Shown piece after piece: positions 10,553-46,803 of a DNA stretch of 64,000 bases. Source of the DNA: Planctomycetota bacterium (GTDB taxonomy: Bacteria > Planctomycetota > UBA8108 > SXIK01); assembly GCA_965223265.1 (NCBI GenBank), contig OZ244999.1:4800001-4864000 (forward strand), written 5' to 3'. Within the stretch, counting starts at the first letter, position 1. Each line of letters opens with the position of its first letter. Position numbers and translations under genes: made by a program. Below the pieces are notes generated by a model. That model was not told the DNA's origin. It saw only the letters and a program-made list of their open reading frames with translations, and ran no database searches.

Positions 10553-10584
10553 AGACACCGCAACCTTGAATCGGAGCCTTCCCC

Positions 10585-11619: not shown

Positions 11620-11704
11620 CGCAAGAGCTCACTTGGGTCCAACGCGCGAGATCAAACGTCCAACAGAACAGACAGAAAAGCGTTCAAATAGAAAGAGTGG
11701 AAAC

Positions 11705-24460: not shown

Positions 24461-24663
24461 CGCACTCAGAGGCTGTGAGGTTTTTGAAACTTGCCGTCGC
24501 AACTCACGGAACCCTCCGGAACAGCACACGGCGTGTGCCTGCTACTTTGAAGAGCGCGTTGGCGACGTCTCTATAGTAGCAGGCACACTCCCGTGTGCCG
24601 TTCCGAACGTGAGCGCGAGTTCTGACGGCACGTTTCAAGAACTTCACAGCCCTCAAGTGTGCG
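24461..24663. repeat. ~200-bp imperfect palindrome: outer ~45-bp inverted repeats enclosing an inverted REP pair (REPIN/MITE-like)
   Basis: GGCTGTGAGGTTTTTGAAACTTGCCGTC pairs with GACGGCACGTTTCAAGAACTTCACAGCC; inner GCACACGGCGTGTGCCTGCTACT pairs with AGTAGCAGGCACACTCCCGTGTGC. Confidence 0.75.
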
Positions 24664-24689
24664 GGAAACTTCCGGCGAAAGGTTGGGCG

Positions 24690-26147
24690 TTGAATCGAAG
24701 CCACCTCCCCTTGGCGACACCACAGTTGGCATCACAGCCGAAAACGGCACCGATCGCGCGGCGCTACTTCCTCGGTGAGTGTGGCGTTGGCCTTGGGTCG
24801 ATGGCGCTCGCATCTCTCCTCGCTGACCGTGATGCGTTCGGCGCCGCATCGCGATCCACGGCAGCGCAGCAGCCGCATTTTCAGGCGCGTGCCAAGCACG
24901 TCATCTTTCTCTTCATGGCCGGCGGCCCTAGTCAGCTCGAGCTGTTCGACAACAAACCTCAGCTGCGTCGATTCGACGGTCAGCAAGTCCCCGCCGAGGT
25001 GATCGAGGGATTCGACCTGCCGTTCATCGAGCGCGATGCCGCGCTCATGTCGTCGCCGCTTAAGTTCTCGCGCTATGGGGAGAGCGGCGCTGAACTGTCG
25101 GAAACGCTCCCCCACCTCGCCGAAATCGCCGACGATATCGCGATCGTCAAGTCAATCCACACTGACGCTTTCAACCACGCGCCGGCGCAGCTTTTCCTCC
25201 ACACCGGGCACCTGCAGCTCGGCAAGCCGAGCATGGGCTCGTGGACCACGTACGGACTTGGGAATGACACTGCCGACCTGCCGGCGTTCGTCGTACTCGG
25301 GACGACCGCCATCAGCGGCGGCGCGGCGTGTTTTGACTCTGGGTTTTTGCCCACCGTTTACCAAGGCGTGCCGTTTCGCTCGCGCGGCGCACCGGTGCTC
25401 TTCGTTGACAACCCCGTCGGCGTCGACGCGCGCTTGCAGCGCGACACATTGGATACGCTTGCGGCACTCAACCGCCAACGCCTCAGCGTTGTTGGCGATC
25501 CAGAAATCGCCGCACGCATCAGCGCGTACGAGCTTTCGTTTCGCCTGCAGGCAAGTGCTCCCGAGCTCATGGACATCACCCGAGAGCCGGCGACAACGCT
25601 CGAGATGTACGGCGCCGAACCGGGCAAACCGTCGTTTGCCAACCAATGCCTGCTCGCGCGGCGGCTGGTCGAACGCGGTGTTCGCTTCGTCGAAGTCGCC
25701 TTGAGCGGCTGGGACCATCACTCGAACGTTGGCAATGGTGTACAGCGGATGTGCCAGAAGACCGATCAAGCGTCGGCCGCCCTGGTGAAAGACCTGAAAC
25801 AGCGAGGCCTTCTCGACGACACCGTGGTGATTTGGGGCGGCGAGTTTGGACGCACTCCGATGGCAGAAAACAATCCGGCGCTTGGCCGCAGTCGCGGGCG
25901 TGACCATCACCCCAACGCCTACGCCATGTGGTTCGCCGGTGGCGGCGTGCAGTCTGGCCAGACGATCGGAGAGACGGACGACATGGGATACCACGTCGTC
26001 GAAGATCCGGTGCACATCCACGACGTGCAGGCGACCGTTCTCCACCTCTTAGGAATGAACCACACGAAGCTGACCTTCCGCCATCAAGGGCGAGACGTGC
26101 GCCTGACCGATGTCGGCGGTCACGTGATCAAGCGGTTGATTTCATGA
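24690..26147 (+). CDS. DUF1501 domain protein (planctomycete sulfatase-like family)
   Basis: AKHVIFLFMAGGPSQLELFDNKP, PSMGSWTTYGLG, LLARRLVERGVRFV, WDHH, WGGEFGRTP, GRDHHP, DVQATVLHLLG. Start approximate. Confidence 0.9.
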   Translation: MNRSHLPLATPQLASQPKTAPIARRYFLGECGVGLGSMALASLLADRDAFGAASRSTAAQQPHFQARAKHVIFLFMAGGPSQLELFDNKPQLRRFDGQQVPAEVIEGFDLPFIERDAALMSSPLKFSRYGESGAELSETLPHLAEIADDIAIVKSIHTDAFNHAPAQLFLHTGHLQLGKPSMGSWTTYGLGNDTADLPAFVVLGTTAISGGAACFDSGFLPTVYQGVPFRSRGAPVLFVDNPVGVDARLQRDTLDTLAALNRQRLSVVGDPEIAARISAYELSFRLQASAPELMDITREPATTLEMYGAEPGKPSFANQCLLARRLVERGVRFVEVALSGWDHHSNVGNGVQRMCQKTDQASAALVKDLKQRGLLDDTVVIWGGEFGRTPMAENNPALGRSRGRDHHPNAYAMWFAGGGVQSGQTIGETDDMGYHVVEDPVHIHDVQATVLHLLGMNHTKLTFRHQGRDVRLTDVGGHVIKRLIS

Positions 26148-31748: not shown

Positions 31749-33032
31749 GTGCAGCGACTGATTGAACGACGCCGCCAACTCCTCGGACCGGCCTATCGAC
31801 TCTTCTACGATCGTCCCCTCCACATCGTTCGCGGCGAGGGCGTCTGGCTGTACGACGCCGACGGTAAGCCGTATTTGGATGCGTACAATAACGTTCCGCA
31901 CGTCGGCCACTGCCACCCCACCGTAGTCGACGCTCTGGTGCGCCAAGCCAAGACCCTCAACACGCACACGCGCTATCTTCATGAAGCGGTTCTCGACTAT
32001 GCCGGTCGTCTGACGTCGAAGTTCCCGGGTGACCTGAGTGTCGTTATGTTCGCCTGCACTGGCAGCGAGGCGAACGAACTGGCCGTGCGCATCGCGAAGA
32101 GTGCCAGCGGAGGCGACGGTTTCATCGTCACGGAGCACGCCTACCACGGCAACACGAACGCGATCTCGGAGCTGTCGACGACGCATGCCTACGTGCAGCG
32201 TGGGCCTGAGATCAAGACGGTCCCCGCGCCGAACGCCTATCGTGGACCCTACCGCTCCGCCGCCAGCGACGACGACGTCGACATCGGAAGTCGTTACGCC
32301 GACCACGTCCACCGCGCAGTCGATGCGATGCGCCGAGAGGACATCAAGCCGGCCGCAATGCTCGTCGACACCATCTTCAGCACAGACGGGATTCACCGGG
32401 CGCTCCCTGGCTACCTCCAGGCTACAGCGGAAGAGGTGCGCGCGGCCGGCGGCGTGTTGATCGCCGATGAAGTGCAGGCCGGATTCGGGCGCACAGGTGA
32501 TCATCTGTGGGGCTTCGAGCATCACGCCGTCATCCCGGACATCGTCACCCTCGGAAAGCCGATGGGAAACGGGCACCCAATCGCAGCTGTCGTGACGACA
32601 CCGCAGCTGGCGGCGAAGTTCGCCGAAAGCGCGCATTACTTCAACACCTTCGGCGGCAATCCTGTCGCGTGCGCCGCCGCCAGCGCGGTCCTCGACGTCC
32701 TTGAAGGTGAAAACCTGCAGGAAAACGCTCGCAGCATTGGCGCCTATCTACGCGACAGGATCGACGAGCTGCGCTCGTCCCACGATCTCATCGGTGACGT
32801 GCGCGGTTCCGGACTCTATATCGGTGTCGAGCTCGTCCGAGATCACGACACGCTCGAACCGGCAAGCGCCGAAACCGCCGCCGTCGTCAACGGCCTGCGC
32901 GATCGCGGCGTGCTGATCTCGTCGACGGGGAAGGAAAACAACGTCCTCAAGATCCGCCCGCCACTGGTCTTTTCGCGCCAGCACGCGGACCAACTGGTCA
33001 CCGCGCTCGACACGACGCTACGAGCGATCTAA
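31749..33032 (+). CDS. Class III PLP aminotransferase fold, 5-phosphohydroxylysine/ethanolamine-phosphate phospho-lyase-like
   Basis: [70 protein letters not shown]. Start estimated at GTG 31749 because the upstream part overlaps the REP. Confidence 0.85.
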
Positions 33033-33052
33033 CGGCAAGTCGCTTGGCGGCT

Positions 33053-33577
33053 CTACGAATCCACTGCGGTTTCAGTCGCCGGCACACGAACGGGCGTCTG
33101 CCCTGCGCCGCGAAGAAACGGCGGCGCCGCAGAGCCGTGAACCAGGTGACACGTGCTGCAAGCGTCAGCCTCCTTCGCTCCTTCACTCACGGCCGCTCTC
33201 GAGGTCGCACTCGCCGCCACTGTCGGACAGGTCAAGAGCGATGCGTGACAACCGCTGCAAAGACGCGTCTGCGGCGCCGAGAGAAGCGACTCATAACGGG
33301 AACTGTGAGGGCGGTGGCAGAGAAGGCAGTCCCCCAGAGCGACAGGCCCGTGCGCGAACTTGACGCGGGCGAGGTCTTGGTGACAGTCTCCGCTGCTGCA
33401 GTTGTTGGCGCCAGAGCGGCTGGCCGGGATGCCACCGCGGACCTCGCCGTGACACTGCCGGCAATCGCCTGGGTGAGCAAAGAGAGGCATCGCCCTCCTC
33501 GCAGTCCGTGGCTCCCGCTCCGACGCACAGCTGACGACGAGCACGAGCAATGTGAATCCAACGATTCCGATCACCAA
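33053..33577 (-). CDS. Small multiheme cytochrome c lipoprotein (doubled-CXXCH family), 5 heme motifs
   Basis: VLVVSC lipobox; CRQCH, CSSGDCH, CLLCH, CSGCH, CSTCH; HGPVALGDC. Start approximate. Confidence 0.75.
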   Translation of the reverse strand: MVIGIVGFTLLVLVVSCASEREPRTARRAMPLFAHPGDCRQCHGEVRGGIPASRSGANNCSSGDCHQDLARVKFAHGPVALGDCLLCHRPHSSRYESLLSAPQTRLCSGCHASLLTCPTVAASATSRAAVSEGAKEADACSTCHLVHGSAAPPFLRGAGQTPVRVPATETAVDS

Positions 33578-33627
33578 TGCGCCCGTCGTAGTGCGGGAAC
33601 CGTTCGTCGCAGCTGAGTGGGGAATCT

Positions 33628-34599
33628 CTACTTGTGGCACAGTGTACAGTCCGACCCGTTGTCTGCGTGCGGCGGTCTCAGGTGACAACGACGGCAATCC
33701 GACGTCGCCGGTTGATGAGGCGGCGGCGGAATCGGCGTCGCCAGCTGATGACTCAGTGTCGATGCGTGACAGACGCGGCAGCCGGTCGACTCGAGCGGTT
33801 CGTGGCACGAGAGACAATGCCGTGATTGAGCCCCGCCGAATCCACCGACATGGCTCCGCGGCTCGACCTCCTGGTGGCAGCGGACGCAGAAGTTTTCCTG
33901 ATGACAAGGCGTGCACTGCGTTCGATTCAAACCGGCCTCCAGACCGTGCCCCCGACCGCGAAAGAACTCCGTGTGACTCTGCGGTTTCATGATTTGGTGA
34001 CATGCGTCGCAAGAGCTCTGAGCATGACAGATGCCACATCCTTCCTGGTGGCCACGCGAGCGTGCGATCTCGATGTCACGGCCGTGAGTGCGCAAAAAGA
34101 TATCAGAATGGTGAGATGGAGGTTTTGTGGTCGTACGGATCTCGAGATGGCAGACCGAACAGTCGGCGGCAACATCGTGCTGCCGATGGCAATCCTGGCA
34201 TGCCTCAGGACGGTTGTCTTTCAGATGCCAACGCGTCGAGTCGGCAAGCAAAGCGCCGTGGCACGCTGCGCATGGAACGTCGCGTGCGCTGTGCACTGCA
34301 TGTGAGAATTTGAGATCTGTCGACACCACCCGAGGAAGGAACGTCTGACTTGGATCTTGTTTCTGGATCTCCGTTTCGTATGGATAAGGCGCGCGCGATT
34401 CATCTTCTCCGTGACACGCGAGACAATGCCGAAACGTCGGCATTTCGGCGGTAGCGTCCGTCACACCTCCTTCATGGCATGCCCCACATGCGATCTTCTG
34501 TTCTTCATGCATGCGATGGCTGAAGCGGGCAGGACGGCTCTCGAGCAAGAGCGAACAGCCAATGAGGCCGATGACAACGCAGCACGCCGCGCCGAGCAT
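33628..34599 (-). CDS. Periplasmic multiheme cytochrome c, 13 CXXCH motifs
   Basis: CGACH, CLACH, CAACH, CQDCH, CSVCH, CGICH, CDACH, CTPCH, CVRCH, CLSCH, CRVCH, CRRCH, CTLCH; FSH motifs of the cytochrome c3/c7 type. Alternative start 34629. Confidence 0.88.
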   Translation of the reverse strand: MLGAACCVVIGLIGCSLLLESRPARFSHRMHEEQKIACGACHEGGVTDATAEMPTFRHCLACHGEDESRAPYPYETEIQKQDPSQTFLPRVVSTDLKFSHAVHSARDVPCAACHGALLADSTRWHLKDNRPEACQDCHRQHDVAADCSVCHLEIRTTTKPPSHHSDIFLRTHGRDIEIARSRGHQEGCGICHAQSSCDACHQIMKPQSHTEFFRGRGHGLEAGLNRTQCTPCHQENFCVRCHQEVEPRSHVGGFGGAQSRHCLSCHEPLESTGCRVCHASTLSHQLATPIPPPPHQPATSDCRRCHLRPPHADNGSDCTLCHK

Positions 34600-34619
34600 C
34601 TTTCGTGCGCTCTCCGTGA

Positions 34620-36008
34620 TCAAAACCATACCCTGAACCCTGAAGTGACGACGTGGTACTCGCTGTGCGAATCTTTTTCATACCGGTACTGGCTGTCGAG
34701 ATGAAGCCAGTCGGTCGCTTTCCACAGCACCTTCACATAGTAAAGTCGGTCACGGTCGCGCTCGGTGCCCGTGAATTCATCGAACCTGTAGAGAGAATAG
34801 TCCGTGCCGATGCGGATGCGCCAGGCTTTCGCGAAGCGCTGTTCAGCCTCAACGCCGGCCGCGTAGATCTCGTCATTGTCAGAGTTGAAGAGGTCCCCAC
34901 GCAGAGAGATCCTCCCGCCACGCCACACATCGCGCGCGTCGAATGACAAGTAAACGTTCTGGTATTCGTGATTGAAGAGCCCCTCGTCCGACGAATCCTC
35001 GAGCTCGCGGACGCTGACACCCGTCCCGACGCCAAAGTGCTCGGCGATGGGCTGGTGAGCATCGATCTGGTACTGAAAGAACGGCGCGTAACTCCCCTGA
35101 ACGAGCTGGAAGGCCGAAAGCTCACTTGAGAGGAAATCAACGATGCCGTTCTGTCGCAGCACCCTGCCGTACACCGAAGACCCCCAGTTCTTTGAGACGT
35201 AGCGCAGGTCGATCAGCTGGCGCCGGTCTCGCTCTTCAACCCACGACGCCGAGACGTTCGTCGACCACTCGTCCGTGATCCTATAATCAGCGTGAATGGC
35301 GTACAGGTCGTCGTTGGCATCGGGCGCGGAATCTCTTCGATCGCGGATGAAGAAGTAGTCCGCACCGAGGCTCAAACCGTCGAGAGGCGTCGATTCGACG
35401 CCAACTCCGGTGAGCAAATCACCGGAGGGAGAGCTTTCGTAGAGATGCGCCGGCACGCCGGCGTAGAGATCGGCGGACAGTGTTTTCCACACTTTCGACT
35501 TAGCGTGCGCGCCGTCGAAGAGAATCCCCTCCTCGCGATGAATACGCTGTCGGCCAAATCGCAAATGCTCAAGCACAGAGAAATCAGCCACCTCCGCGTA
35601 GGCCGAGTGCAAGAAGGCGTGAAATCGGTCTCCAAACGTGTTCGAGACATCCGTGAAGGGTACGAAGCCGCGACTGTCGCTCGCGCTGCGAAACCCATCG
35701 ATATCGAGATCATAGCTGCCCTGAAAGTGAAAACCGACCTCGCCATAGGGTCGCTCATGCCGCGCTTCGGGATGCGGGTAGGCCATATCGAGCGTGAGAA
35801 AGCCGTAGACGTCTTGGTCCCTGGCGTCGTCGACCGATGAAGACCGAAACCTGTAACGTTGACTGAGGTTGCCGGAGATTTCCGCAGGCGCCGCTTTTTC
35901 GCTCTCGTCTTCCTGCGCTCCCAGATGTGGCGCGCAAAGTGGAGGGCAGAGCGCCGTGCAGGCAGCCGCAGCACAAACGACGGAAAGAAGGCGGTCCCGA
36001 GTCGCCAT
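34620..36008 (-). CDS. Outer-membrane beta-barrel (putative porin of a porin-cytochrome complex)
   Basis: Signal peptide, amphipathic beta-strand pattern, C-terminal GFRVWF (terminal-Phe BamA signal); flanked by multiheme cytochrome genes. Confidence 0.75.
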   Translation of the reverse strand: MATRDRLLSVVCAAAACTALCPPLCAPHLGAQEDESEKAAPAEISGNLSQRYRFRSSSVDDARDQDVYGFLTLDMAYPHPEARHERPYGEVGFHFQGSYDLDIDGFRSASDSRGFVPFTDVSNTFGDRFHAFLHSAYAEVADFSVLEHLRFGRQRIHREEGILFDGAHAKSKVWKTLSADLYAGVPAHLYESSPSGDLLTGVGVESTPLDGLSLGADYFFIRDRRDSAPDANDDLYAIHADYRITDEWSTNVSASWVEERDRRQLIDLRYVSKNWGSSVYGRVLRQNGIVDFLSSELSAFQLVQGSYAPFFQYQIDAHQPIAEHFGVGTGVSVRELEDSSDEGLFNHEYQNVYLSFDARDVWRGGRISLRGDLFNSDNDEIYAAGVEAEQRFAKAWRIRIGTDYSLYRFDEFTGTERDRDRLYYVKVLWKATDWLHLDSQYRYEKDSHSEYHVVTSGFRVWF

Positions 36009-36014
36009 AAGCTG

Positions 36015-38144
36015 CTACGGCTCCTCGGTGAATCGATAGTCGGGCCACGACCCGAACGCCACGCCGCGATGACAGGCGACACACGAGTTGAGTACGGCGG
36101 GAGAACCGTCGAGGTGCATCTCTTCGCTGACTTTCGGTGAAATCGCACCAAAGGTGTGTGAGGAGATATCGCCGCGGACGACGAAACCGTCGAGGTCGCG
36201 AACCCACTCGGCGCTCCGCGCGGTGCGCGGCATGTGGCACAGCGTGCAGCGTCCGAGTCCCTGTTCGGATCCCGGATCGCCGTACGGTGCCGGCCCGATG
36301 TTCATCGCCACGCCGATCTGATCGAACGTGCGGAGCAGAACGTGAGAGTTGAGCGCTTGTCGTACCGCTGCGGGAAACTGGCCAGCACCCGGATCGGCAA
36401 CTGCGCTCGGTTCAACCGCGTCGAAATCGCCGCGCCCAGAGTGGCAATCAAAGCAGAGGACGTTGTTGTCGGCCGGGGCGACAAGTTGCGCAGCGAACGT
36501 GCGGTCGTGAGCGTCGTGACAATCAAAACAGACGACGATCTGACGCTCGTTCAACGCGTGCGCCGACCTGACATGATCAAAGTAGTGCTGCCTTTGCTGC
36601 TTGGAGTGGTCAAAGTCGCTTCCGAACGGCCGGTCGCGCCACGAGGCGCTGTCGTCCACCGCGAGATCAACGGTGTCGAGGAAGCCGCCACTGGTTCCGA
36701 AGTGCGGCAGAATGTCGCGCCCACTCGGCGTGCCGAAGAACTCGGCCGGACTCTGACCAGGTGTGAAAAACTCCACTGCGCCGCTCAACGCATCGTTCCG
36801 CGCGGGGTAGTCTCCACCACCGTCACCATCGATGAGGGCGTTTCCACGACCGCGGATGTGGCACTGGCCGCAAAGCATCTGCGCCCGCCCAGGGGACAAG
36901 TACTGCGGCTGCACGATGGATCCGCCGCGGTCTTGGGCGTGCTGGGAGCCTGGGCCATGACAGCGCTCACAACCGACGTTCATCTCGTCGAGGTTGCCGT
37001 CGCCATCGTAGTCAAACGGCCCACCCGGATCGGCCACGGCGTGGGCCTGGAAGAGACCGTCGCCGCTGCGCGTTAGTGACATCCCGGTGAAGTGACAGCC
37101 GGCGCAGCGGTTGTCGAAAGAGTCTCGCGGCTCCGGGACACGCAGCGGCCGGTCCCCATCGACCGCTGGCGGCTCCCAGTGCTCGGCGTCGTAATCCGTC
37201 CAGGCGGGCACCGTGACCTCGCCACGCCCGACGTCGCCACGAGTCTCGGAGAACTGCGCCGGCAGGACCTGATAGGTACCGAGCGTTGCGTCCGCCGTGT
37301 GGCGCCCCTGCGCGCTGAGGCGCGTGACGTACAGCTGCTTGAATAGTCCTTCGCCACCGTACGAGAACTCGACGTAAAGTGGCTCGGAGACGCGCGCCTG
37401 GTCGTCACTTTCGACAGCCTGAAAAAATCCCGCTGCATCCCTGCCCAGAAGGATGCTGTACCCCTCGTTGCTGTCGACGCGATACCCGAAACCATCACCC
37501 CCGCCTGTGTTGTCATGGGGGTTCCCGTCCGCGAAGTAGGCTAGGCCCGCGTCGACGACCGGGAACTGTGAGAGATCTTGAAGCGAGGATGGTTCGGAAC
37601 CGGCGGCCGTCACGCGGCGCAGTCCGATCGAATGCAGCGTTCTCATATGTCCTGATGCGTCGGCGTGGCATTCGAGGCATCGGGAAGACCCCACATAGGC
37701 AGCGTCCTCAGGTGGTCGATCCGAAAGTTCGACCGTCAAATCGGTCAGAGCCTCGCCACTGTCGACCACCAACGCGGATCGCGATACGCTCCCGCCAGGC
37801 AAGTATCCCGAAATTGCCGCGCGCGCGAAGAGGAAATAACGCCCAGGGGGAAGCGAAACCGAGAACCGGCCGTCGGCGTCCGTCGACGCGGACGTTGTCG
37901 CGCTGCTCGTGCAATCCTCGAGGGGTTGGAGCGACATCGAAGCGGCGACTTCAGCCGCTGGGATCAAAAAGACCGTGGCGTTGATGCCGGCTCCATTACC
38001 GACGACGCGGCCACTGACGCTTCCGTCGGCAGGCGGAGCCGAGGAGTCTGAGCTACAGCCGAGAGAGAGAGCGCAGACGAGATAGCCGAAGAGTCGAACG
38101 AGTCGAACGAGTCGAGTGCCAAACAGGCAGCGCGCTGAATCCAT
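36015..38144 (-). CDS. Octaheme cytochrome c lipoprotein with N-terminal carboxypeptidase-regulatory-like beta domain
   Basis: LSLGC lipobox; YVGSSRCLECH, CAGCH, CERCHGPG, CGQCH, CFDCH twice, CTLCHMP, CVACH. Confidence 0.85.
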   Translation of the reverse strand: MDSARCLFGTRLVRLVRLFGYLVCALSLGCSSDSSAPPADGSVSGRVVGNGAGINATVFLIPAAEVAASMSLQPLEDCTSSATTSASTDADGRFSVSLPPGRYFLFARAAISGYLPGGSVSRSALVVDSGEALTDLTVELSDRPPEDAAYVGSSRCLECHADASGHMRTLHSIGLRRVTAAGSEPSSLQDLSQFPVVDAGLAYFADGNPHDNTGGGDGFGYRVDSNEGYSILLGRDAAGFFQAVESDDQARVSEPLYVEFSYGGEGLFKQLYVTRLSAQGRHTADATLGTYQVLPAQFSETRGDVGRGEVTVPAWTDYDAEHWEPPAVDGDRPLRVPEPRDSFDNRCAGCHFTGMSLTRSGDGLFQAHAVADPGGPFDYDGDGNLDEMNVGCERCHGPGSQHAQDRGGSIVQPQYLSPGRAQMLCGQCHIRGRGNALIDGDGGGDYPARNDALSGAVEFFTPGQSPAEFFGTPSGRDILPHFGTSGGFLDTVDLAVDDSASWRDRPFGSDFDHSKQQRQHYFDHVRSAHALNERQIVVCFDCHDAHDRTFAAQLVAPADNNVLCFDCHSGRGDFDAVEPSAVADPGAGQFPAAVRQALNSHVLLRTFDQIGVAMNIGPAPYGDPGSEQGLGRCTLCHMPRTARSAEWVRDLDGFVVRGDISSHTFGAISPKVSEEMHLDGSPAVLNSCVACHRGVAFGSWPDYRFTEEP

Positions 38145-38185
38145 GGTGAAGAATCATCAGGTGGTGCTGGATCGACCGAGCGCAC

Positions 38186-38217
38186 CGTTGATTCTACCGC
38201 CATGATACGAATCAACG
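38186..38217. promoter_or_regulatory. Perfect 9-bp inverted repeat in the divergent promoter of the cytochrome locus
   Basis: CGTTGATTC-N14-GAATCAACG. Confidence 0.4.
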
Positions 38218-38312
38218 TCGCAAGAAATCGTTCTGTCTCATTGCCCGTGTGTTTGCTACAGTTTGAGCGCAAGGCAAGAAGGCCTCCGATCATCCGACAT
38301 GGCGGAACCAAA

Positions 38313-39452
38313 ATGGCTTCCAAGCTCCGCACCCGCCACCATCGCATCGCAACTCTGCTCGTCGCGTTCGGACTTGTGGCAGGCGTGGCGATTGTGCCGT
38401 CCCTCTCGCAGGAACGACGCCCGACGACACGTCGGAGCACATCCGCGAAGGACAAAACGCGTCGCGACTTCAATGCCAATTGCCTCAGCTCGGGCTGTCA
38501 CGCTCAGCTCAAGGAGCACGAGCAAGTCCACGGCCCTGTCTCCATCGGCGCTTGCCAAGTTTGTCACGCCGCCGCCGGAGCGCAAGAGGACCACAAGTTC
38601 AAGCCGACACGGTCGCCGGCGGAGCAGTGCTCGTTTTGCCACCAGCCCGCCAGCAAGGGTGAGTCGATTCACAAGGTCTTCGCCGATCGCGACTGTCTTG
38701 CATGTCACGATCCGCACGGCGGATCCACCCGTGCCCTCCTCGTCACGACCGACCAATCAGCGCTCTGTAAGAAGTGTCACGAACCTAAAGCTCCCGGCAC
38801 CACCGAGGCCTCTCCTCAAGCGGCGACGGTCGAACAGACTTTTGAAAATCTGCACTATCAAGCAGGCGGGAAAGCGTGCCTCGACTGCCACCGCGCCCAT
38901 CAGTCAGAATTCGCCAGGCTTCTACACCAACGTGAAGATACGGCATGTTTCAGCTGTCACGATCGTTCCATCGCAAGGGCAAACCTGCCAAACGTCCGTG
39001 ACGTCAAGTCAGAGGTCGCGACCGCGAAGCACGTCCACAAGCCGATCGTAGAGGGCAAGTGCGCCGGCTGCCACGCCTCCCATTCCGTCGACAGCGCCCA
39101 CCTGTTGAAATCGACCTACACTTCAGAATTCTACATGCCGTTCTCAGACAGCGCTTATCGCCTCTGCTTTGAGTGCCATGACAAGTCGCTGGCGACGGAT
39201 GACCAAAGAAGCGCGACGTCATTTCGAGACGGCGCGCGAAATCTGCATGCCGTCCATGTCAACCGCGACAAGGGGAGGACCTGCGCAGTCTGCCACGACG
39301 CACATGCAAGTGCGCTACCGGGGTTGATCCGCCAGAGTGTTCCCTTCGGACCAGGCGGATGGCAACTCCCGATCGGTTTTGAAAAAACAACAACAGGTGG
39401 AACCTGCGCTTCTGGATGTCACAAAAAGATGAGTTACGACAACAGTAAGTAG
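38313..39452 (+). CDS. Periplasmic doubled-CXXCH multiheme cytochrome c (about 11 hemes)
   Basis: Nine CXXCH plus CLSSGCH and CASGCH; CHDPHGG, HKPIVEGKC, FRDGARNLH..HV, GRTCAVCHDAH, GGTCASGCH. Confidence 0.88.
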   Translation: MASKLRTRHHRIATLLVAFGLVAGVAIVPSLSQERRPTTRRSTSAKDKTRRDFNANCLSSGCHAQLKEHEQVHGPVSIGACQVCHAAAGAQEDHKFKPTRSPAEQCSFCHQPASKGESIHKVFADRDCLACHDPHGGSTRALLVTTDQSALCKKCHEPKAPGTTEASPQAATVEQTFENLHYQAGGKACLDCHRAHQSEFARLLHQREDTACFSCHDRSIARANLPNVRDVKSEVATAKHVHKPIVEGKCAGCHASHSVDSAHLLKSTYTSEFYMPFSDSAYRLCFECHDKSLATDDQRSATSFRDGARNLHAVHVNRDKGRTCAVCHDAHASALPGLIRQSVPFGPGGWQLPIGFEKTTTGGTCASGCHKKMSYDNSK

Positions 39453-39492
39453 CCGGTCTCGATTTCTCTCCGCGGCGACGACACTAGAAGCG

Positions 39493-41310
39493 ATGAGAAC
39501 ACCATTCCTCAGACGTTTTCTCCATCCGCTGGGCATCTTCGGTCTTCTATTCGTAGCGATAGGGTTCGGAGGTAGCGTTGTCGGGCTGGTCGTCGACCTT
39601 GTCACCGCCGAGGAACCGCGGCCCTATGAGGGCCTTCTGACCTTCTGCCTGTACCCGTGTGTCATGTTTTTTGGCATCGCGCTTCTGCTGCTGACCTTGT
39701 GGCTCGAGCGCCGGCGAGCCCGCAAACTCGAAGCGAAGCAGATCGATTGGCGGCCGCGGCTCGACCCACGCGTCAAGCGGCACCGGCGGCTCATTGCAGG
39801 GCTCGTCTTCACTGCATTGATGTTCCTTTCCTTGAGCATCGTCGGTGCGATCGGCGCGCTTCGATTCATGGAGTCGAATCGCTTCTGCGGGGAGATGTGC
39901 CACGCACCGATGGAGCCCCAACACGTCGCGCATCAGTTTTCTCCCCATGCGAACGTCGACTGTGTCCAATGTCACGTCGGTCCGGGAGCCGCGGCGTACG
40001 TCGAAGCCAAAGTCTCTGGTCTTCGCCAACTTTCCCAGATGCTAACGGACAGTTACCCACGTCCGATCCGTGCCCACCCCATGGACGTACCGAGTGCAGA
40101 CGCCACATGTATCGGCTGCCACTGGCGCGAGCGCTACCATGGAGAGCAGCTCAGTCAATACGTGCGATACGGATTCGACCTGAAGAACACGCGTCGCGCT
40201 GTACGACTCGTTCTGAACGTCGGCGGTGGAAATTCGACGTTCGGAGCGCGGCAAGGGATCCACTGGCATGCCAATCCTGAGAACCGTGTTTGGTTCCGGT
40301 CGACGGATCCTTTCCACCAGGAGATTCCATGGGTCAAGGTCGAACGCGCCGACGGAACAGTGGCTGTCTACAAGCGTCAGGATGCGAGCGCCGATGACGA
40401 TCCCGATGGCAGCGATGAGGCGATCCATTTGATGAGCTGTCGCGATTGCCACAACCGCCCGGCACATCGTTTCATGCTTCCGGACGACGCGGTCGACCTG
40501 GCGCTGGAGAGCGGTGGCATCGACCGTTCAATCCCGTCGATCAAGACCGTCGCGGTCAGCGCCCTCGGAAAGACCTACGCGACCGTCGACGAGGCGCTTT
40601 CTGGGATTCGCTCCGCCGTGGAGCAGTTCTATAGCGACACGCTTCCGTCCGTCCTCGCCACCCGGCGCGAGGAGATCGAACGTTCGATCGCTGCGCTTCA
40701 TGACATCTATCGAAGGAATGCTTTTCCCGAGATGAACGTGAACGGCTACACGTTTCCTGACAACTCTGGGCATCTCACATTTCCGGGTTGTCTTCGATGC
40801 CACGACGGCAAGCACACGTCCGACGACGGCACGGTTCTCTCCGGCGACTGCCAGCTCTGCCACCGCTTCGTGACGCGTTCACCTGAAGACGGCACGCTCC
40901 GCGAAGTGCCGACCGCGAGCGCCGTACTCCACCCGTTCAAACCAGAGCACCACGAGCAGATTGACTGCTGGACGTGCCACTCGGGTAGCACGACTCCCTA
41001 CGCCAGCTGTATGGAATGCCATCCCAACGCCACAAACGGACACGCGATGGCTTTTCAGTGCTCGATCTGTCACAAACCCGAGTCAACGGATCACGCCGCA
41101 TCGACCTGCGGTCCGTGCCATCCTCTGAGCGGATCGCCTCTGCACCAACACGCAGAGCATCGCGACTGCGTGAAATGTCACACTCCCCACGGATGGAATG
41201 CGGAAATTCCCGCAAGCTGCACGCCATGCCATGAAGAATCCCTCGATGCGAACGGATTCAAGGGTGTGGAGTCGACGTTCTACGGCTTGCCATCAAGAAC
41301 GCGTGGGTAA
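39493..41310 (+). CDS. Inner-membrane NapC/NirT-type (ImcH-like) multiheme cytochrome with extra C-terminal hemes
   Basis: Three N-terminal TM helices; FCGEMCH, SPHANVDCVQCHVGPGA, AKVSGLRQ, GIHWH, CRDCHNRPAH, CLRCHDGKH; 11 CXXCH plus one CX3CH. Confidence 0.85.
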   Translation: MRTPFLRRFLHPLGIFGLLFVAIGFGGSVVGLVVDLVTAEEPRPYEGLLTFCLYPCVMFFGIALLLLTLWLERRRARKLEAKQIDWRPRLDPRVKRHRRLIAGLVFTALMFLSLSIVGAIGALRFMESNRFCGEMCHAPMEPQHVAHQFSPHANVDCVQCHVGPGAAAYVEAKVSGLRQLSQMLTDSYPRPIRAHPMDVPSADATCIGCHWRERYHGEQLSQYVRYGFDLKNTRRAVRLVLNVGGGNSTFGARQGIHWHANPENRVWFRSTDPFHQEIPWVKVERADGTVAVYKRQDASADDDPDGSDEAIHLMSCRDCHNRPAHRFMLPDDAVDLALESGGIDRSIPSIKTVAVSALGKTYATVDEALSGIRSAVEQFYSDTLPSVLATRREEIERSIAALHDIYRRNAFPEMNVNGYTFPDNSGHLTFPGCLRCHDGKHTSDDGTVLSGDCQLCHRFVTRSPEDGTLREVPTASAVLHPFKPEHHEQIDCWTCHSGSTTPYASCMECHPNATNGHAMAFQCSICHKPESTDHAASTCGPCHPLSGSPLHQHAEHRDCVKCHTPHGWNAEIPASCTPCHEESLDANGFKGVESTFYGLPSRTRG

Positions 41311-41323
41311 TTTGAGCGCTGCC

Positions 41324-41353
41324 TTGACCTCACAACCGCCGCGCTCCTACCAT
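41324..41353 (+). promoter_or_regulatory. Candidate sigma70 promoter for the MtrC-like gene
   Basis: TTGACC-N18-TACCAT. Confidence 0.35.
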
Positions 41354-41437
41354 CGAAGGTAGACCGTCGAAAGGTTCGGAGCCCCCGGGATGGGGCAACC
41401 CCTCGGCTAATTGAGGCGAGAATGCGAGCAAAGAGAC

Positions 41438-43582
41438 ATGCCCGAACAGAGCCTTCATCGAACGATCTTTGCGCCGCGAGACGACGCGCGCGAGAGACGA
41501 ACTTCATGGTCGAAGAACTCATGGACGACTCGGTGCGCAGCTCTCTTGACACTCACGGTGGCGATTGGCTGCAGCGAGGACACGGAGAGGATCACGAACG
41601 TCACCGTCGAGTCGGATGCATCGCTTGGCGCTGGCCTGGAGATGACCATCCATTCGGTCGAGATCAGTAGCAACCCTGGTGTCGTCGTCGAGTTCAGCCT
41701 TGCGAGCGACGAGGGTCCGCTCTCCCTGTCCGATCTCGATTCCAACCCGCGCTTCGTTTTGGCCTACATCGACGTCGATCCCGTCTCGGGTCTGTCGCGT
41801 TACCAAGCTTATACGGTCGCCGATGTCGCAGGGGAAGAGTTCGTCTTCGAAGGCGAGGTCCGACAACCAGCTCTCGAGGAAGCCCCGCAGGTCGTGTCGG
41901 ACTCAGGAGGGGTGTTCGAAGAGCTCGGCGACGGCAACTTGCGCTACACCTTCGGTACGGAGTTGCCGAACGATTTCGATCGCAGCGCCACGCACACACT
42001 GGCTGCTTGGGTTTCGCGGCAGAATCGACAACTGGTGTCAAATCCAGTTTTCTCGTTTGTCCCCGGCGGTGGGCCCGTGACACTGACGCGTGAGATCGCG
42101 CCCACGGCGGCGTGCAATTCATGCCACGATCCGCTGGCGATCCATGGTGGCACCCGACGCGCGATGGGACTTTGCGTGGTCTGTCATACCGACCAGACCG
42201 TTGACCCCGAAACAGGTGAGAATCTGGAACTTTCGCAGCTGGTCCACAAGATTCATCGCGGCGGGCAGCTTGCCGTCAAACCGTACTTCGTCGTCGGTTT
42301 TCGTCAGAGCGTCCACGATTACTCGGATCTCGGCTACCCACAAGACAGCCGCAACTGCACAACTTGCCATCAAGAAGACGGGGCCGACGCCGATCACTGG
42401 CGGCTGCACCCCTCACGTGCAGCGTGTGGATCGTGCCATGATGAGATCGACTTCGAGACGGGCGAGAACCATCTCGGCATCCAACAATTCGACGACATCT
42501 TCTGCACCAACTGTCACCGCGGCGAACAGGTTGTCGAGTTTGACAACAGCGTGCCGGGAGCACACGTCGTGCCCTACTTCAGCTCAGCGAATCCAGATCT
42601 GACGCTGGCGATCACTGATGTGATGAACATGACGCCGGGGAACCAGCCAAGCGTGCGTTTCACGATCACGGACGTCTCCGGCCCTGTGGACATCGCGAGC
42701 CTCAGCAGCATCTCGATGCTGTTTGCCGGTCCGACAACAGACTACAGTCAAATCATTGGGGACCATCGCTTTTCCATCAGCGGCACGGGCTTGATGGAGA
42801 ACGCTGTCGGCGACTACACTTTCGCACCGGACGGGTATCTTCTCCCGATCGATGCCAACGGCACTTGGAGCATCGGCATGGAGGCGCGCACAAACGCAAT
42901 TGCAGTAGGCGCACCAGGCGACACTGAGGACATCCGTTTCGGCGCGAACAACCCGGTCGTCCACATCGACGTTGCCGATGGAACCCTCGGGGGTGGCTCT
43001 CCGCTGGCGCGGCGAGCGATTGTCGACGAGGCCGCCTGTCAACGCTGCCATGAGAATATTCTGGAGCACGGCAATCTTCGGACCGACCTCGAGTATTGTC
43101 TCCTGTGCCACAACCTCTGGGCGACCGACGAGAGCCGGCGCCCCGGTGTCGACGCGATCTCAAACCCACCGGAGAGTGTCGACTTCAAGCTCATGATTCA
43201 CCGCATCCACACCGGCGAGGAACTCGAGAACCCTTATGTCGTTTTCGGCTTCGGCGGGACGGAGCACTCCTACAACGACGTTCGATATCCAGGCGATCGA
43301 CGCAACTGTGAGGCCTGTCACACCGCATCGACGGAGTCCTTGCCGCTGCCGGCGACCACTGGGCCGACCGTGGTTCACATAGGCGGCGTGCCGCTCGATC
43401 TCCCGACCGCGATCCGCACGCCGGCAACGAGCGCATGCACGGGTTGCCACGACGGCGAGGCCGCGTTCACCCACGCGCGTCTCAATTCGATCGTCGTCGA
43501 CGAGACAGACGCTTCGGAGAGCTGTAGCGTCTGCCATGGGAGTGGGCGATCTGAAGCGGTCGACGATGTGCATGCCCGATGA
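41438..43582 (+). CDS. OmcA/MtrC-family decaheme cytochrome c lipoprotein
   Basis: VAIGC lipobox; two beta domains alternating with two pentaheme domains: CNSCH..HGG.R, CVVCH, LVHKIH, YPQ..CTTCH, CGSCH, CTNCH, CQRCH, CLLCH, MIHRIH, CEACH, CTGCH, CSVCHG. Confidence 0.9.
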   Translation: MPEQSLHRTIFAPRDDARERRTSWSKNSWTTRCAALLTLTVAIGCSEDTERITNVTVESDASLGAGLEMTIHSVEISSNPGVVVEFSLASDEGPLSLSDLDSNPRFVLAYIDVDPVSGLSRYQAYTVADVAGEEFVFEGEVRQPALEEAPQVVSDSGGVFEELGDGNLRYTFGTELPNDFDRSATHTLAAWVSRQNRQLVSNPVFSFVPGGGPVTLTREIAPTAACNSCHDPLAIHGGTRRAMGLCVVCHTDQTVDPETGENLELSQLVHKIHRGGQLAVKPYFVVGFRQSVHDYSDLGYPQDSRNCTTCHQEDGADADHWRLHPSRAACGSCHDEIDFETGENHLGIQQFDDIFCTNCHRGEQVVEFDNSVPGAHVVPYFSSANPDLTLAITDVMNMTPGNQPSVRFTITDVSGPVDIASLSSISMLFAGPTTDYSQIIGDHRFSISGTGLMENAVGDYTFAPDGYLLPIDANGTWSIGMEARTNAIAVGAPGDTEDIRFGANNPVVHIDVADGTLGGGSPLARRAIVDEAACQRCHENILEHGNLRTDLEYCLLCHNLWATDESRRPGVDAISNPPESVDFKLMIHRIHTGEELENPYVVFGFGGTEHSYNDVRYPGDRRNCEACHTASTESLPLPATTGPTVVHIGGVPLDLPTAIRTPATSACTGCHDGEAAFTHARLNSIVVDETDASESCSVCHGSGRSEAVDDVHAR

Positions 43583-43620
43583 AACGATTTTTTTGCTAAC
43601 GCCAACGAACAGGGGAATTG

Positions 43621-43995
43621 ATGAGTGAATCGACCAGTCTCTATGCGCGTCTCGGTGGCTACGACGCCATCGCAGCCGTCACCGAAAACCTGCTGCAACG
43701 TCTCATGTCGGATCAGCTTCTCGGTCGCTTTTGGGCTCATCGTGGCGCTGACGGTCTGCGACGCGAGAAGCAGCTGCTGATCGATTTTCTCTGCGCGTCC
43801 GCAGGCGGCCCCCTCCTCTACACCGGCCGCGACATGAAGGTGTCCCACGAAGGCATGCGCATCAGCGAGGCCGATTGGTCGGCCTTCATAGGCCACGTCG
43901 AGGCCACGCTCGATCATTTCGAGGTCCCATCGACCGAGCGCGGCGAGGTACTCGCGTTCGTCGACAGCACGAAGGCCGACATCGTCGAGGTGTGA
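43621..43995 (+). CDS. Group I truncated hemoglobin (GlbN-like)
   Basis: SLYARLGGYDAI, QLLIDFLCASAGGPLLYTGRDMKVSHEGMRI. Confidence 0.9.
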   Translation: MSESTSLYARLGGYDAIAAVTENLLQRLMSDQLLGRFWAHRGADGLRREKQLLIDFLCASAGGPLLYTGRDMKVSHEGMRISEADWSAFIGHVEATLDHFEVPSTERGEVLAFVDSTKADIVEV

Positions 43996-44067
43996 GGGCA
44001 GGGCGAGCTGCGTTAGCGTTCAGCTTGTGCTCAGCACCTGACGCCAATCCGTGCGCCGAAGGTCAAG

Positions 44068-46803
44068 TCAGCGGCAAGAACTAAAGGTGCTACAAGCCAG
44101 GCCATCAGGTGTCGTGTCGAGCCCGCAGTGATCGAATGGCGCCGCCGGCACCGGGCCGGATTGAAAGAGGTAAGACAAGAGCGCGAGTGCGTCGTCAAAA
44201 TTGATCGCACCGTTGTCGTCGACGTCGACCGCTCGCGCGCAGGCAAATCCCTCCCCGGCGAAGAGCACTCGCAGGATGCGAATCGGGTCCGCGATGTTGT
44301 GGCGACCATCATCGTTCGCGTCGCCGCGCTGAAACGCACCTTCCTGACAGCGGTCAAGCGTGCCGTCGGCATCGCTGTCGAGACTGAGCGGTGACGATAA
44401 GAACCTCAGAACGGAGAGACTGCTCCCGGCCGCCACCATGACCGCGCCGGTGCCGGCTCCATCGAGCCCCAAGGAATCGACCCAAAGCGGAAAATCACCA
44501 ACGACACGAGACTTCGATTCAGTGAGAGCGCCGGTACCGTCATTGACCAGAACGACGAGCTCGCTCCCCAAGACTTGAACGTCATAGTCGAACCGCTCGG
44601 TGCTAGCCCGTGCCACGTCGATGTCACCGTCGGAATCGAAGTCACCGATAGCGATCGAACTTGCCACGAACGGATCCTCATACACAGCGCCTTCCACGAA
44701 CTCATAACCCTCGCGCTGAAACAGCACGGACGTCGCGCCGATGGTTGTATTGTCGCGAGAAAAAGAACGATCGAGAACGACGTCGTCTTTGCCGTCATGG
44801 TCGAAGTCGCCGACTCTCAGATCTCTCAAAGACCCTCCTACGGGCGAAGAGTCAACTGCCAACGCGACCTCCCGTCCATCATTGCGTAGGAACGCGAGTT
44901 TCGCCCCGCCAACGACGAGGTCGAGGAATCGATCGCCGTCGAGCTGGATCTTCTCGACGAAGAGGGGATGAAAACTGAAGTCGGCGGCGTACAGCTCTTC
45001 GAACTCCCCTTGGCCTCGATGCGTGAGAACGACGAGCGACGAATCGCGGGCGTCAGGCCTGATGACAAAGTCATCGCGGCCGTCCAGATTGAGGTCTAAC
45101 ACGTGAAGCATCCAACCAGGAAGCGTAAAAGATTGCTGCTGAGAATACTCGAATCGCCCGGTGGAAACGAACGCGATCATATCGCGAGAAGACGACTGGA
45201 CGATCAGGTCGGCACGCCCGTCGGCGTCGAGGTCTCCGGTCCGAGCAGTCGCGATCTCGACTGCCGATTCCCCATCGAAAACGCGCTCAAGCCCAGCGGC
45301 GCCGCGATTCTCGTAGACCTGAAGGCGCTGGCGATCTGGCACAACGAAAGCGTCTCTGTCGCCGTCGGCGTCGAGATCTCCAGCCATCGCCGCCACGGGC
45401 CAGTACTGCGGCGTTTCGGTGTCGAGGAAATGGGGGTAAACGTCCCGCCCGAACGCCGCCGATCTCGGACTCCCCATGAGAAACGCAACGGTTCCGGCTT
45501 TCGGGAGGGTGACGGCGAGGTCGACGAGTCCGTCCCCGTTGAGGTCGCATGCATCGAGGTCGGAAGGTACTTCAGTCGCAACGTTCAGCCTCTGGAGCAG
45601 CGTGAAACGGGCAGCGCCGTCGTTCGCCCAAATCGTCACGAAGGTATCACGAATGAGGATGGCATCTTCAGTCCCATCACCATTGACGTCCCCTAGAGCA
45701 ACCGAACTACTGTTCGATTCCATGGGAAAACGGCCCAGCATGAGCCCGGGTCGCAAATGGTCTACGTTTGTGTAGGTGCTCTCGCCAGTGCGCAGGAAGA
45801 CGAGTCCGTCACCGGTCACCACGTCGAGCCAAGAGTCGCCGTTGAGATCTGCGATTTCGACGCCATATCCGATCACGAGGTCCAGTTCACCCGCCGGTGC
45901 AAAGTCGAAGCCAACACGATTCGCGAAGACGGTGCCAAAGCCGTGCTCGATAGCAATCAAATCAGGCAGTTGATCGTTGTCCATGTCAGCAGCGGTGAGC
46001 CAACCCCCGTGCGCAGCAGCACGTTGAGGCGACAGGAATCGCCCCCCTCCAGCGCCTGGCAGGATCCACAATGCACCGCGAGCGCCGACGGCGAGATCGA
46101 CGACTGTGTCCTCGTTGAAATCAGCCGCGACCGCCGAGATCGCCCGAAACGTCAATTGAATTTCAACGACCTTCTCGAACGTGCGCGCGGCGGACTGTCG
46201 CATCAGGATCGCGCGCGTCGTGCGCACGGCCGGCTGAAAAAGGATCAGATCCTGTCGGTCATCGCCATCGAAGTCGACGGTCACAGAAAAACGGCTGACG
46301 ACGGGAATGCGTGTCGTCGAACCGAATCGGCCCTCGGAGTGCCCCCAGAAAACGACCATTCCCGAACGTGTGCTCGCGATGAGATCCGCTTCACCGTCGC
46401 CGTTGAGGTCGTCGACCGTTGAGATGTCGACTCCGTCGACGTCCACGCTCTCCGATTCGAAGGCGCGGAACCGCGGCGTGGATTCACACTCATCCGGAAA
46501 TCGATCGTCGTTGCAGTCAGCCGCCGTTCCGGCGGCGATCTCACAGGCGTCGACGCGGCCGTCGTTGTTACAATCGGCAACGGAGAGCTCACACTCGTCG
46601 AGGACGCCGTTCAGGTCGCAGTCGACGCTTGAGTCCTCTACAATCTCGCAGGCGTCAAGTATCCGGTTGTGATTGCAATCGTCCGCGACCGATGGCGCCG
46701 CCCCCATGCTGCAGTCGGCACCGAGTACGACGCCTGCCGGGCGCATCCCGATGAGGACAGGGTTTGCGATGGCAACGATCGTCAGAGTCAGTGCGACGCG
46801 CAT
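44068..46803 (-). CDS. Secreted FG-GAP/VCBS-repeat protein with Cys-rich DCN repeats and C-terminal dockerin
   Basis: N-terminal DC(N/D)xNxxxDxCE-type repeats, many DLNGDG..DL repeats, FQRGDANDDG..DVDDNG dockerin. Confidence 0.85.
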   Translation of the reverse strand: MRVALTLTIVAIANPVLIGMRPAGVVLGADCSMGAAPSVADDCNHNRILDACEIVEDSSVDCDLNGVLDECELSVADCNNDGRVDACEIAAGTAADCNDDRFPDECESTPRFRAFESESVDVDGVDISTVDDLNGDGEADLIASTRSGMVVFWGHSEGRFGSTTRIPVVSRFSVTVDFDGDDRQDLILFQPAVRTTRAILMRQSAARTFEKVVEIQLTFRAISAVAADFNEDTVVDLAVGARGALWILPGAGGGRFLSPQRAAAHGGWLTAADMDNDQLPDLIAIEHGFGTVFANRVGFDFAPAGELDLVIGYGVEIADLNGDSWLDVVTGDGLVFLRTGESTYTNVDHLRPGLMLGRFPMESNSSSVALGDVNGDGTEDAILIRDTFVTIWANDGAARFTLLQRLNVATEVPSDLDACDLNGDGLVDLAVTLPKAGTVAFLMGSPRSAAFGRDVYPHFLDTETPQYWPVAAMAGDLDADGDRDAFVVPDRQRLQVYENRGAAGLERVFDGESAVEIATARTGDLDADGRADLIVQSSSRDMIAFVSTGRFEYSQQQSFTLPGWMLHVLDLNLDGRDDFVIRPDARDSSLVVLTHRGQGEFEELYAADFSFHPLFVEKIQLDGDRFLDLVVGGAKLAFLRNDGREVALAVDSSPVGGSLRDLRVGDFDHDGKDDVVLDRSFSRDNTTIGATSVLFQREGYEFVEGAVYEDPFVASSIAIGDFDSDGDIDVARASTERFDYDVQVLGSELVVLVNDGTGALTESKSRVVGDFPLWVDSLGLDGAGTGAVMVAAGSSLSVLRFLSSPLSLDSDADGTLDRCQEGAFQRGDANDDGRHNIADPIRILRVLFAGEGFACARAVDVDDNGAINFDDALALLSYLFQSGPVPAAPFDHCGLDTTPDGLACSTFSSCR

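Follow-up and report, generated by a model that had tools for sequence, protein, structure and literature searches.

A planctomycete multihaem cytochrome locus with the features of a porin-cytochrome chain for extracellular electron transfer

Seven genes in a 64,000-nucleotide stretch of planctomycete DNA (contig OZ244999.1 of assembly GCA_965223265.1, positions 4,800,001 to 4,864,000; hereafter the window) encode six multihaem c-type cytochromes and a predicted outer-membrane β-barrel. They are designated A5, B13, barrel C, D8, E11, F12 and G10 (Table 1). We read this locus as a porin-cytochrome chain for outward extracellular electron transfer (EET), leading from the quinol pool to the cell surface, and put the probability of this reading at roughly 0.6. 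It is carried by the genes themselves and their haem motifs, the family memberships of the cytochromes, the fold of the barrel, and the linkage of the genes in this and other genomes. The locus elaborates on a design previously noted in the phylum and does not represent a new type of system. An earlier note on this DNA, made from the sequence without database searches (the original prediction), had proposed a hybrid electron conduit in a lineage from which no chain of this type was known. The proposed function has largely held up, through family memberships and linkage; the novelty for the lineage has not.

Organization of the locus

Recomputation of the haem motifs between positions 33053 and 43582 gave 59 motifs across the six cytochromes (5, 13, 8, 11, 12 and 10), exactly the number that had originally been given as approximate. 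The genes form two divergent sets, as had also been described, running D8, barrel C, B13, A5 on the minus strand and E11, F12, G10 on the plus strand. On the minus strand, D8 and barrel C are 6 nt apart, barrel C and B13 overlap by 10 nt, and B13 and A5 overlap by 13 nt. None of the seven frames is disrupted, and no haem motif, signal or lipobox is missing. The ORF (open reading frame) at 33053–34039 overlaps B13, and the true start of A5 was therefore placed, probably correctly, at GTG 33640; for E11, the start is likely to be ATG 38313.

The host genome is a single contig of 9,179,496 bases with a completeness of 91.65%. In a crude stop-to-stop scan it contained 31 ORFs with at least three CXXCH motifs, six of which lie inside this 10.5-kb stretch. 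The G+C content of the window is ≈61%. Of the sequencing runs listed for this DNA, four are of DNA type, all from one study, and none is of RNA.

Table 1. Coordinates and characteristics of the genes of the locus and adjoining features (positions in the window).
Feature	Position	Strand	Characteristics
A5	33053..33640	-	~195 aa; pentahaem, 4 CXXCH + 1 CX4CH; final gene of the minus-strand operon
B13	33628..34629	-	333 aa; 13 CXXCH; lipobox GLIGC
Barrel C	34620..36008	-	462 aa; signal peptide; zero haem motifs; C-terminal RVWF
D8	36015..38144	-	709 aa; 8 CXXCH; lipobox LSLGC; leads the minus-strand operon
Divergent intergenic region	38145..38312	.	between D8 and E11
E11	38202 or 38313..39452	+	9 CXXCH + CX3CH + CX4CH
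F12	39493..41310	+	605 aa; 11 CXXCH + CX3CH
G10	41411..43582 (database form starts 41438)	+	10 CXXCH; lipobox VAIGC
Truncated haemoglobin (Bac_globin)	43618..43995	+	125 aa; PF01152, 50.5 bits; without signal peptide

The barrel and its 13-haem partner

Barrel C is predicted to be an outer-membrane β-barrel of 22 strands. It had no match in Pfam or NCBIfam, and its homologues comprise 492 cluster representatives. An AlphaFold2 (AF2) model based on an alignment of 50 homologues showed 22 strands, with a predicted local distance difference test score (pLDDT) of 87 and a predicted template modelling score (pTM) of 0.81, in agreement with the earlier description of a β-barrel ending in Phe. In this model, the first strand begins at residue 43, right behind the signal peptide, and the chain has no plug domain. 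The best structural neighbours in VIA-align (Z = 16.5–17.8) were TonB-dependent receptor barrels (Cir, Z = 17.8; FyuA, Z = 16.8; BtuB, Z = 16.6) and usher pores (FimD, Z = 17.7; PapC, Z = 16.6), all of which we take to be barrels with a plug in the lumen. Foldseek returned generic barrels of 18–24 strands (AlgE, Occ and PapC) with template modelling scores of 0.35–0.5. Weak Pfam or NCBIfam matches were seen in some of 50 barrel-family members, to Porin_4 (four), OMP_b-brl (two), MtrB_PioB (one, E = 0.0012) and BBP2_2 (one). In a protein atlas, whose matches serve as leads only, barrel C fell with uncharacterised clusters from Nitrospirota, Myxococcota and Thermodesulfobacteriota.

The gene directly behind the barrel encodes B13. 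In an alignment of 30 barrel-partner proteins, the lipobox Cys was at least 90% conserved and all 13 motifs were invariant; a strict lipobox pattern fits 25 of the 30 proteins, and 29 could be assigned by eye. B13 is predicted to be a conserved lipoprotein that acts with barrel C as a wire across the outer membrane. It had originally been counted as one of two periplasmic cytochromes, with three lipoprotein cytochromes besides. This tally needs revision: with B13 included, four lipoprotein cytochromes are predicted, and only E11 looks periplasmic or anchored. A complex prediction for barrel C (residues 32–462) and B13 (residues 25–333) gave scores of 0.15, 0.39 and 0.08, relative to a mark of 0.32, and is counted neither for nor against their pairing.

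A longer frame was noted behind the barrel gene of another planctomycete genome (G064:C9 15680–17722, L118). It has 23 CXXCH motifs in 681 aa and looks like a duplicated or fused 13-haem partner.

G10 and the other outer cytochromes

The profile score of G10 identifies it as a true member of the OmcA/MtrC family: on TIGR03507 it reached 435.6 bits, compared to a cut-off of 209.3, over model positions 48–672. The MtrC/OmcA-like terminal module of the original prediction is thus borne out. The CXXCH motifs, at residues 235, 255, 316, 339 and 365 and at 543, 563, 633, 676 and 705, make up two pentahaem domains, and PF22113 (MtrC/MtrF II/IV) matched in two stretches (171.5 bits). Among structure chains, G10 matched MtrF (3pmq, E = 1.2e-30), as well as OmcA, UndA and MtrC. 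Its lipobox Cys is at least 90% conserved among 21 homologues, and the protein is predicted to be the terminal surface reductase.

D8 is predicted to be a surface or outer-membrane cytochrome. Its N-terminal domain is CarboxypepD_reg-like, and it has a weak match to the Thermincola surface cytochrome OcwA (6qvm_A, E = 2e-4). The protein atlas placed it with uncharacterised clusters that combine CarboxypepD_reg with multihaem regions, again as leads only. The small cytochrome A5 has an N-terminal hydrophobic segment with the lipobox-like motif LVVSC; it scored 57.9 bits on Paired_CXXCH and showed C-terminal similarity to the DmsE family (49.7 bits versus a cut-off of 192.2).

The inner-membrane and periplasmic cytochromes

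F12 has three hydrophobic segments, at residues 15–33, 48–66 and 100–118, followed by a CX3CH motif at 132, CXXCH motifs at 157, 206, 316, 433 and 453, and six more motifs at 492–576. These positions are close to those of the Geothrix ImcH homologue in Table S3 of the 2018 survey by Zhong and Shi (PMC6295460, available in part), which lists haems at 134, 158, 207, 316, 433 and 453 and transmembrane (TM) segments at 13–35, 50–72 and 102–121. Because its TM segments and core haem positions fit this published row, F12 is read as an ImcH-type core with a C-terminal six-haem extension. The extension brings F12 to 12 motifs, above the range of 6–10 given for ImcH homologues in the available text of the same survey. 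The long form is shared by 34 of the best 120 F12 homologues, while the remaining 86 have the usual 6–7 CXXCH plus CX3CH; the CX3CH motif was found in 119 of the 120. Residues 105–211 are NrfH-like (2j7a_C, E = 2.6e-5). Like ImcH of Geobacter sulfurreducens, F12 has three TM segments, a CX3CH motif past the third of them and a NapC/NirT-like region, a likeness drawn from published positions and not from the Geobacter ImcH sequence itself. The Geobacter-like inner module of the original prediction is therefore matched by the ImcH layout of F12, which is predicted to be an inner-membrane quinol oxidase.

E11 has one N-terminal hydrophobic segment without a lipobox, and four to five paired-CXXCH units (Paired_CXXCH, 124 bits). 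It matches chain 6r2q_A with E = 5.7e-9; we take this chain to be MtrA from its length of 333 aa, although our copy of the structure labels it otherwise. E11 is predicted to be a periplasmic relay that is partly MtrA/DmsE-like.

The genome carries the cytochrome c maturation genes whose absence, it had been pointed out, would speak against such a conduit: CcmF-, CcmC- and CcmE-type genes lie near 4.01–4.02 Mb. These belong to system I; ResB, of system II, was not found in the genome. There are also two Omp85 genes, Lgt and nine secretin matches.

Recurrence in other planctomycetes

We searched a sample of 401 Planctomycetota genomes from 287 genera; since kin are not independent, the counts show how often the parts recur and should not be taken as a statistical test. 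The barrel family was present in 85 of the genomes and 66 of the genera. In all 30 barrel loci returned, including that in the window, a gene with 12–15 CXXCH motifs lies directly behind the barrel gene on the same strand, with 13 motifs in 27 loci, 15 in two and 12 in one. TIGR03507 matched at E ≤ 1e-10 in 44 genomes, 40 of them above the cut-off, with most forms ≈1000 aa long. The barrel was also present in 36 of these 44 genomes, at a distance of at most 12 kb in 32 of the 36 (coordinates read by eye). ImcH-like genes were less widespread (21 of 401 genomes); in seven of the 20 genomes other than the host, the distance to the barrel gene is no more than about 5 kb or the gene is part of the barrel cluster.

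Individual loci show how the parts are combined, and the synteny across Planctomycetota that had been suggested as a check is evident from them: parts of the conduit recur together. A relative in the same family has, in order, a 4-haem cytochrome, an ImcH-like protein (38% identical to F12), the barrel, a 13-haem cytochrome and a 984-aa MtrC-like protein. The order in genome G084 is barrel, 13-haem cytochrome, D8-like protein, OmcA/MtrC, 11-haem cytochrome and 4-haem cytochrome. In G262 and G064, the D8-like gene, the barrel gene and the partner gene are on one strand, and a G10 orthologue (48–49% identical) is found 8–10 kb away on the opposite strand, the same division between two strands as in the present locus. 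The D8-like lipoproteins in the barrel clusters of G262, G064 and G084 are 29–32% identical to D8, and in G037 an E11-like gene (38% identical) is divergent from the barrel operon.

The barrel pair was also found in anammox-type genomes. HZS_alpha (hydrazine synthase alpha) was present in all five sampled genomes of one anammox-type family. In three of these five, a Phe-ending barrel is followed by a lipobox frame of 345–359 aa with 14 CXXCH motifs (in one case 13 plus CX4CH). The partner is 30–32% identical to B13 (tblastn E = 7e-38 to 4e-34) and the barrel is 25–26% identical to barrel C (tblastn E = 5e-21 to 1e-18); no other cytochrome genes were found near the barrel pair in these three genomes. 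By sequence similarity, barrel C and B13 are homologous to the two-gene porin-cytochrome (Pcc) cluster of anammox bacteria. From its fit to the description in the available part of PMC4245776, the pair in the anammox-type genomes would be kuste4024/4025.

Relatives in other phyla

Outside the phylum, where the best 80 of 548 confirmed stretches were kept, OmcA/MtrC homologues were frequent in Acidobacteriota and Chloroflexota, among others. An F12-like gene (33–38% identity) was found near the G10-like gene (35–42% identity) in 20 of the 83 OmcA/MtrC loci searched. These neighbourhoods include Acidobacteriota (Bryobacteraceae and Solibacteraceae) and other phyla, and a small paired-CXXCH cytochrome often lies behind the OmcA/MtrC gene. 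Barrel C had no homologue in any of the 83 loci at E = 1e-5. B13 matched strongly only in the loci of two relatives, and weakly in four neighbourhoods of non-planctomycete type.

A quick OmcA/MtrC tree was calculated from 48 rows, leaving out half of the 74 non-planctomycete rows. G10 and two planctomycete orthologues formed a clade with a support of 100, which was placed beside a group dominated by Chloroflexota (98) and apart from both the extended planctomycete forms (clade support 100) and two long-branched planctomycete rows. The tree is unrooted and drawn with a midpoint root, and so gives neither a donor nor a direction of transfer. The locus looks like a mosaic, in which the phylum's own core of barrel and 13-haem cytochrome is joined by an OmcA/MtrC lineage and an ImcH type common to other phyla. 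Transfer of the whole locus from Acidobacteriota was considered and rejected, since the Acidobacteriota loci have no homologue of barrel C.

Four OmcA/MtrC homologues, 39–42% identical to G10, are on contigs of metagenome-assembled genomes (MAGs) labelled Bathyarchaeia/Nitrososphaerota (L014, L016, L017 and L026). Three of them (L014, L016 and L026) group beside Chloroflexota sequences in the quick tree. They could reflect either mis-binning or genuine acquisition by archaea.

Proposed electron path and its alternatives

In the outward chain that we favour, F12, as a three-helix ImcH-type protein, would oxidize menaquinol in the inner membrane. The periplasm would be spanned by the six-haem tail of F12 together with the 11-haem E11, and B13, seated inside the plugless 22-strand barrel C, would carry the electrons across the outer membrane. 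On the outside, G10, D8 and A5 would take up the electrons and pass them to Fe(III) or Mn(IV) minerals, humic substances or an electrode. The locations of the proteins, their contacts, the order and direction of the flow, and the substrates are thus what the genes and their linkage would imply.

Several observations weigh against this path. Barrel C lacks the MtrB/PioB signature (PF11854), and MtrB itself (6r2q_B) ranked only 29th among its structural neighbours in VIA-align, with Z = 14.1. B13 resembles ActA of alternative complex III (ACIII) and c7 domains, not MtrA, and its AF2 model is poor (pLDDT 65.2, pTM 0.47); Foldseek with this poor model gave nothing at E ≤ 0.001, the top rows being ACIII ActA subunits, with MtrA absent. 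E11, the top scorer at the locus on TIGR03508 (DmsE/MtrA), reached only 65.2 bits against a cut-off of 192.2, and F12 scored 41.1 bits on TIGR03153 (NrfH), under the cut-off. The cluster is also patchy: a G10 query matched in only two of the 40 nearest relatives, both distantly. Past residue 54, G10 has zero cysteines outside its haem motifs. A CX8C disulfide in domain III is conserved in Shewanella MtrC and OmcA, and, with no non-haem Cys after the lipobox, G10 lacks it. This separates G10 from the Shewanella clade, while the TIGR03507 family score is unaffected. Finally, all four predicted lipoproteins (G10, D8, A5 and B13) could be oriented towards the periplasm. Asp at position +2 of the lipobox is a sorting rule from E. 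coli; none of the four lipoboxes has it, and the rule may not be that of the host.

We also considered the reverse direction, in which electrons from Fe(II), reduced humics, a cathode or a partner cell would enter the quinone pool or periplasmic reductases. Porin-cytochrome conduits are bidirectional in principle, and Fe(II) oxidisers use Mtr homologues, according to the available text of PMC6295460; a homologous barrel and 14-haem pair is present in anammox relatives as well. However, in Fe(II) oxidisers an outer cytochrome of the MtrC type is often missing from the Mtr clusters (PMC4245776, available in part), whereas there are three candidate outer cytochromes here. Moreover, in the part of the 2018 survey available (PMC6295460), all known ImcH homologues came from Fe(III) reducers, which speaks for the outward direction. 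An inward conduit appears improbable to us.

We regard it as equally unlikely that the network is confined to the periplasm, with the lipoproteins facing inwards to reduce chelated metals, sulfur or nitrogen oxides, and barrel C serving as an ordinary porin. The strict adjacency of the barrel and 13-haem genes, seen in 30 of 30 loci, is a hallmark of porin-cytochrome pairs; barrel C is the size of a TonB receptor, yet has no plug of its own; and the solved members of the G10 family were named cell-surface cytochromes by their depositors. Such confinement would, on the other hand, fit the closest solved relatives of B13, which are the periplasmic ActA of ACIII and c7 domains, and the gene for a cytoplasmic globin behind G10. 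That the genes are unrelated neighbours, or are decaying from disuse, would be compatible with the patchiness of the cluster in close relatives, and can be dismissed almost entirely: the seven frames are intact, with all motifs, signals and lipoboxes, and the same parts recur jointly in many genomes of the phylum.

The outward chain could be one instance of a modular extracellular respiration used throughout the phylum by non-anammox planctomycetes, in which a 13-haem lipoprotein, in place of a soluble protein of the MtrA type, plugs a 22-strand barrel as large as that of a TonB receptor, the surface modules are interchangeable, OmcA/MtrC has been recruited in at least three lineages, and a 12-haem ImcH provides the link to the quinol pool. 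We put this forward tentatively, and on balance are more inclined to doubt it than to accept it. If true, many planctomycetes of soils, sediments and waters would be overlooked reducers of metals and humics.

Comparison with known systems

The closest described counterpart is the two-gene Pcc cluster of Candidatus Kuenenia stuttgartiensis, which consists of a porin and a protein of 338–344 aa with 12–14 haems (Shi, Fredrickson and Zachara 2014, PMC4245776, available in part). The present locus likewise has a barrel gene followed by the gene of a cytochrome of about 340 aa with 12–14 haems. Unlike the anammox Pcc, it has in addition an ImcH-type cytochrome, an 11-haem relay and three lipoprotein cytochromes, including one of the OmcA/MtrC type. 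The anammox partner is called periplasmic in the available text of PMC4245776, whereas a conserved lipobox was seen here.

With the roles that we assume for the chains of Shewanella MtrCAB/OmcA/CymA (6R2Q), the two systems have a common logic, which leads from a quinol oxidase through a periplasmic relay to a haem wire within a large barrel, and on to a decahaem lipoprotein at the surface. They differ in most of the components that fill these roles. MtrB is a barrel of 26 strands, while barrel C is predicted to have 22, and there is no MtrB/PioB barrel here: a search with PF11854 gave zero matches at the locus and in the genome as a whole (completeness 91.65%). Nor did any protein reach the DmsE/MtrA cut-off, the barrel partner being instead a 13-haem lipoprotein, and the inner-membrane protein is of the ImcH type, unlike CymA. 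The statement in the original prediction that no mtrAB pair is recognisable is thus correct, and barrel C and B13 may be a functional analogue standing in for that pair.

As in the OmbB-OmaB-OmcB Pcc of Geobacter, a porin is combined with an inner cytochrome and an outer lipoprotein cytochrome. The barrel partner, however, has 13 haems rather than the eight of OmaB, and the outer cytochrome is of the OmcA/MtrC type, unlike OmcB. The Acidobacteriota loci with ImcH-like and OmcA/MtrC genes differ from the planctomycete locus in that the latter uses the barrel and 13-haem pair of its own phylum.

Soils, sediments and waters are rich in planctomycetes, which, anammox bacteria aside, are mostly regarded as aerobic degraders of polysaccharides. 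A working haem wire from quinol to the surface would let them respire minerals, humics or electrodes. With it, Mtr and the Geobacter Pcc would be joined by a third well-defined design of outer-membrane conduit, in which a 13-haem lipoprotein is paired with a 22-strand barrel that has no plug. The locus is a good test case, with all candidate parts together in a single-contig genome, and one experiment would inform many lineages, given that the barrel is present in 85 of 401 genomes.

The lineage cannot be described as one not known for such chains: the barrel pair is widespread in the phylum and has an anammox homologue, and surveys of Planctomycetota already include Pcc and mtrC. From the available parts of these sources, anammox Pcc and anammox EET are on record (PMC4245776; preprint 10.1101/855817), Pcc clusters have been reported in Planctomycetota MAGs (PMC10732223; PMC13264449; preprint 10.1101/2022.03.26.485925), and one Planctomycetota MAG has mtrC (PMC10367259). 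The available text of the 2018 survey gives zero ImcH homologues in Planctomycetes (PMC6295460). In the literature searched, we found no paper that dissects the combination of a 22-strand barrel, a 13-haem lipoprotein, OmcA/MtrC and an extended ImcH, although genes of this sort may appear in the surveys' supplementary tables.

Other features of the window and genome

The span originally proposed for the conduit extended to 43995. Its main part, up to 43582, stands, while the last stretch holds a truncated globin gene that had gone unmentioned. The globin gene starts 35 nt past G10 and is possibly co-transcribed with it, but it is not counted as a part of the conduit; no homologue was found in the related loci searched.

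From the orientation of the genes alone, the region between D8 and E11 would presumably hold both promoters. A consensus promoter scan found no site in this region; over 32800–44300, one promoter-like and seven terminator-like sites were found, not above the numbers in shuffles.

Two further stretches of the host genome, outside the window, contain related features. A distant second barrel homologue (C1:6548520–6551026; 690-aa frame; E = 2.9e-22 to the family profile) adjoins a 320-aa ORF with nine CXXCH motifs, with which it may form another porin-cytochrome-like pair; this distant barrel type is also present in two relatives of the same family. Three ORFs with 11, 10 and 20 CXXCH motifs make up a further multihaem cluster at C1:1901908–1911025.

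Elsewhere in the window, at 24375–29095 on the plus strand, a PSCyt2/PSD1 (DUF1549/DUF1553) gene comes directly after one for DUF1501, a pairing typical of planctomycetes that served here only as a taxonomic hint. In addition, a gene in a genome of the same phylum encodes a protein identical to one that NCBI attributes to a Planctomycetota MAG. Positions 8578–13102 hold a divergent RNA-repair module consisting of the sigma-54 activator RtcR, the RNA 3'-phosphate cyclase RtcA and the RNA ligase RtcB.

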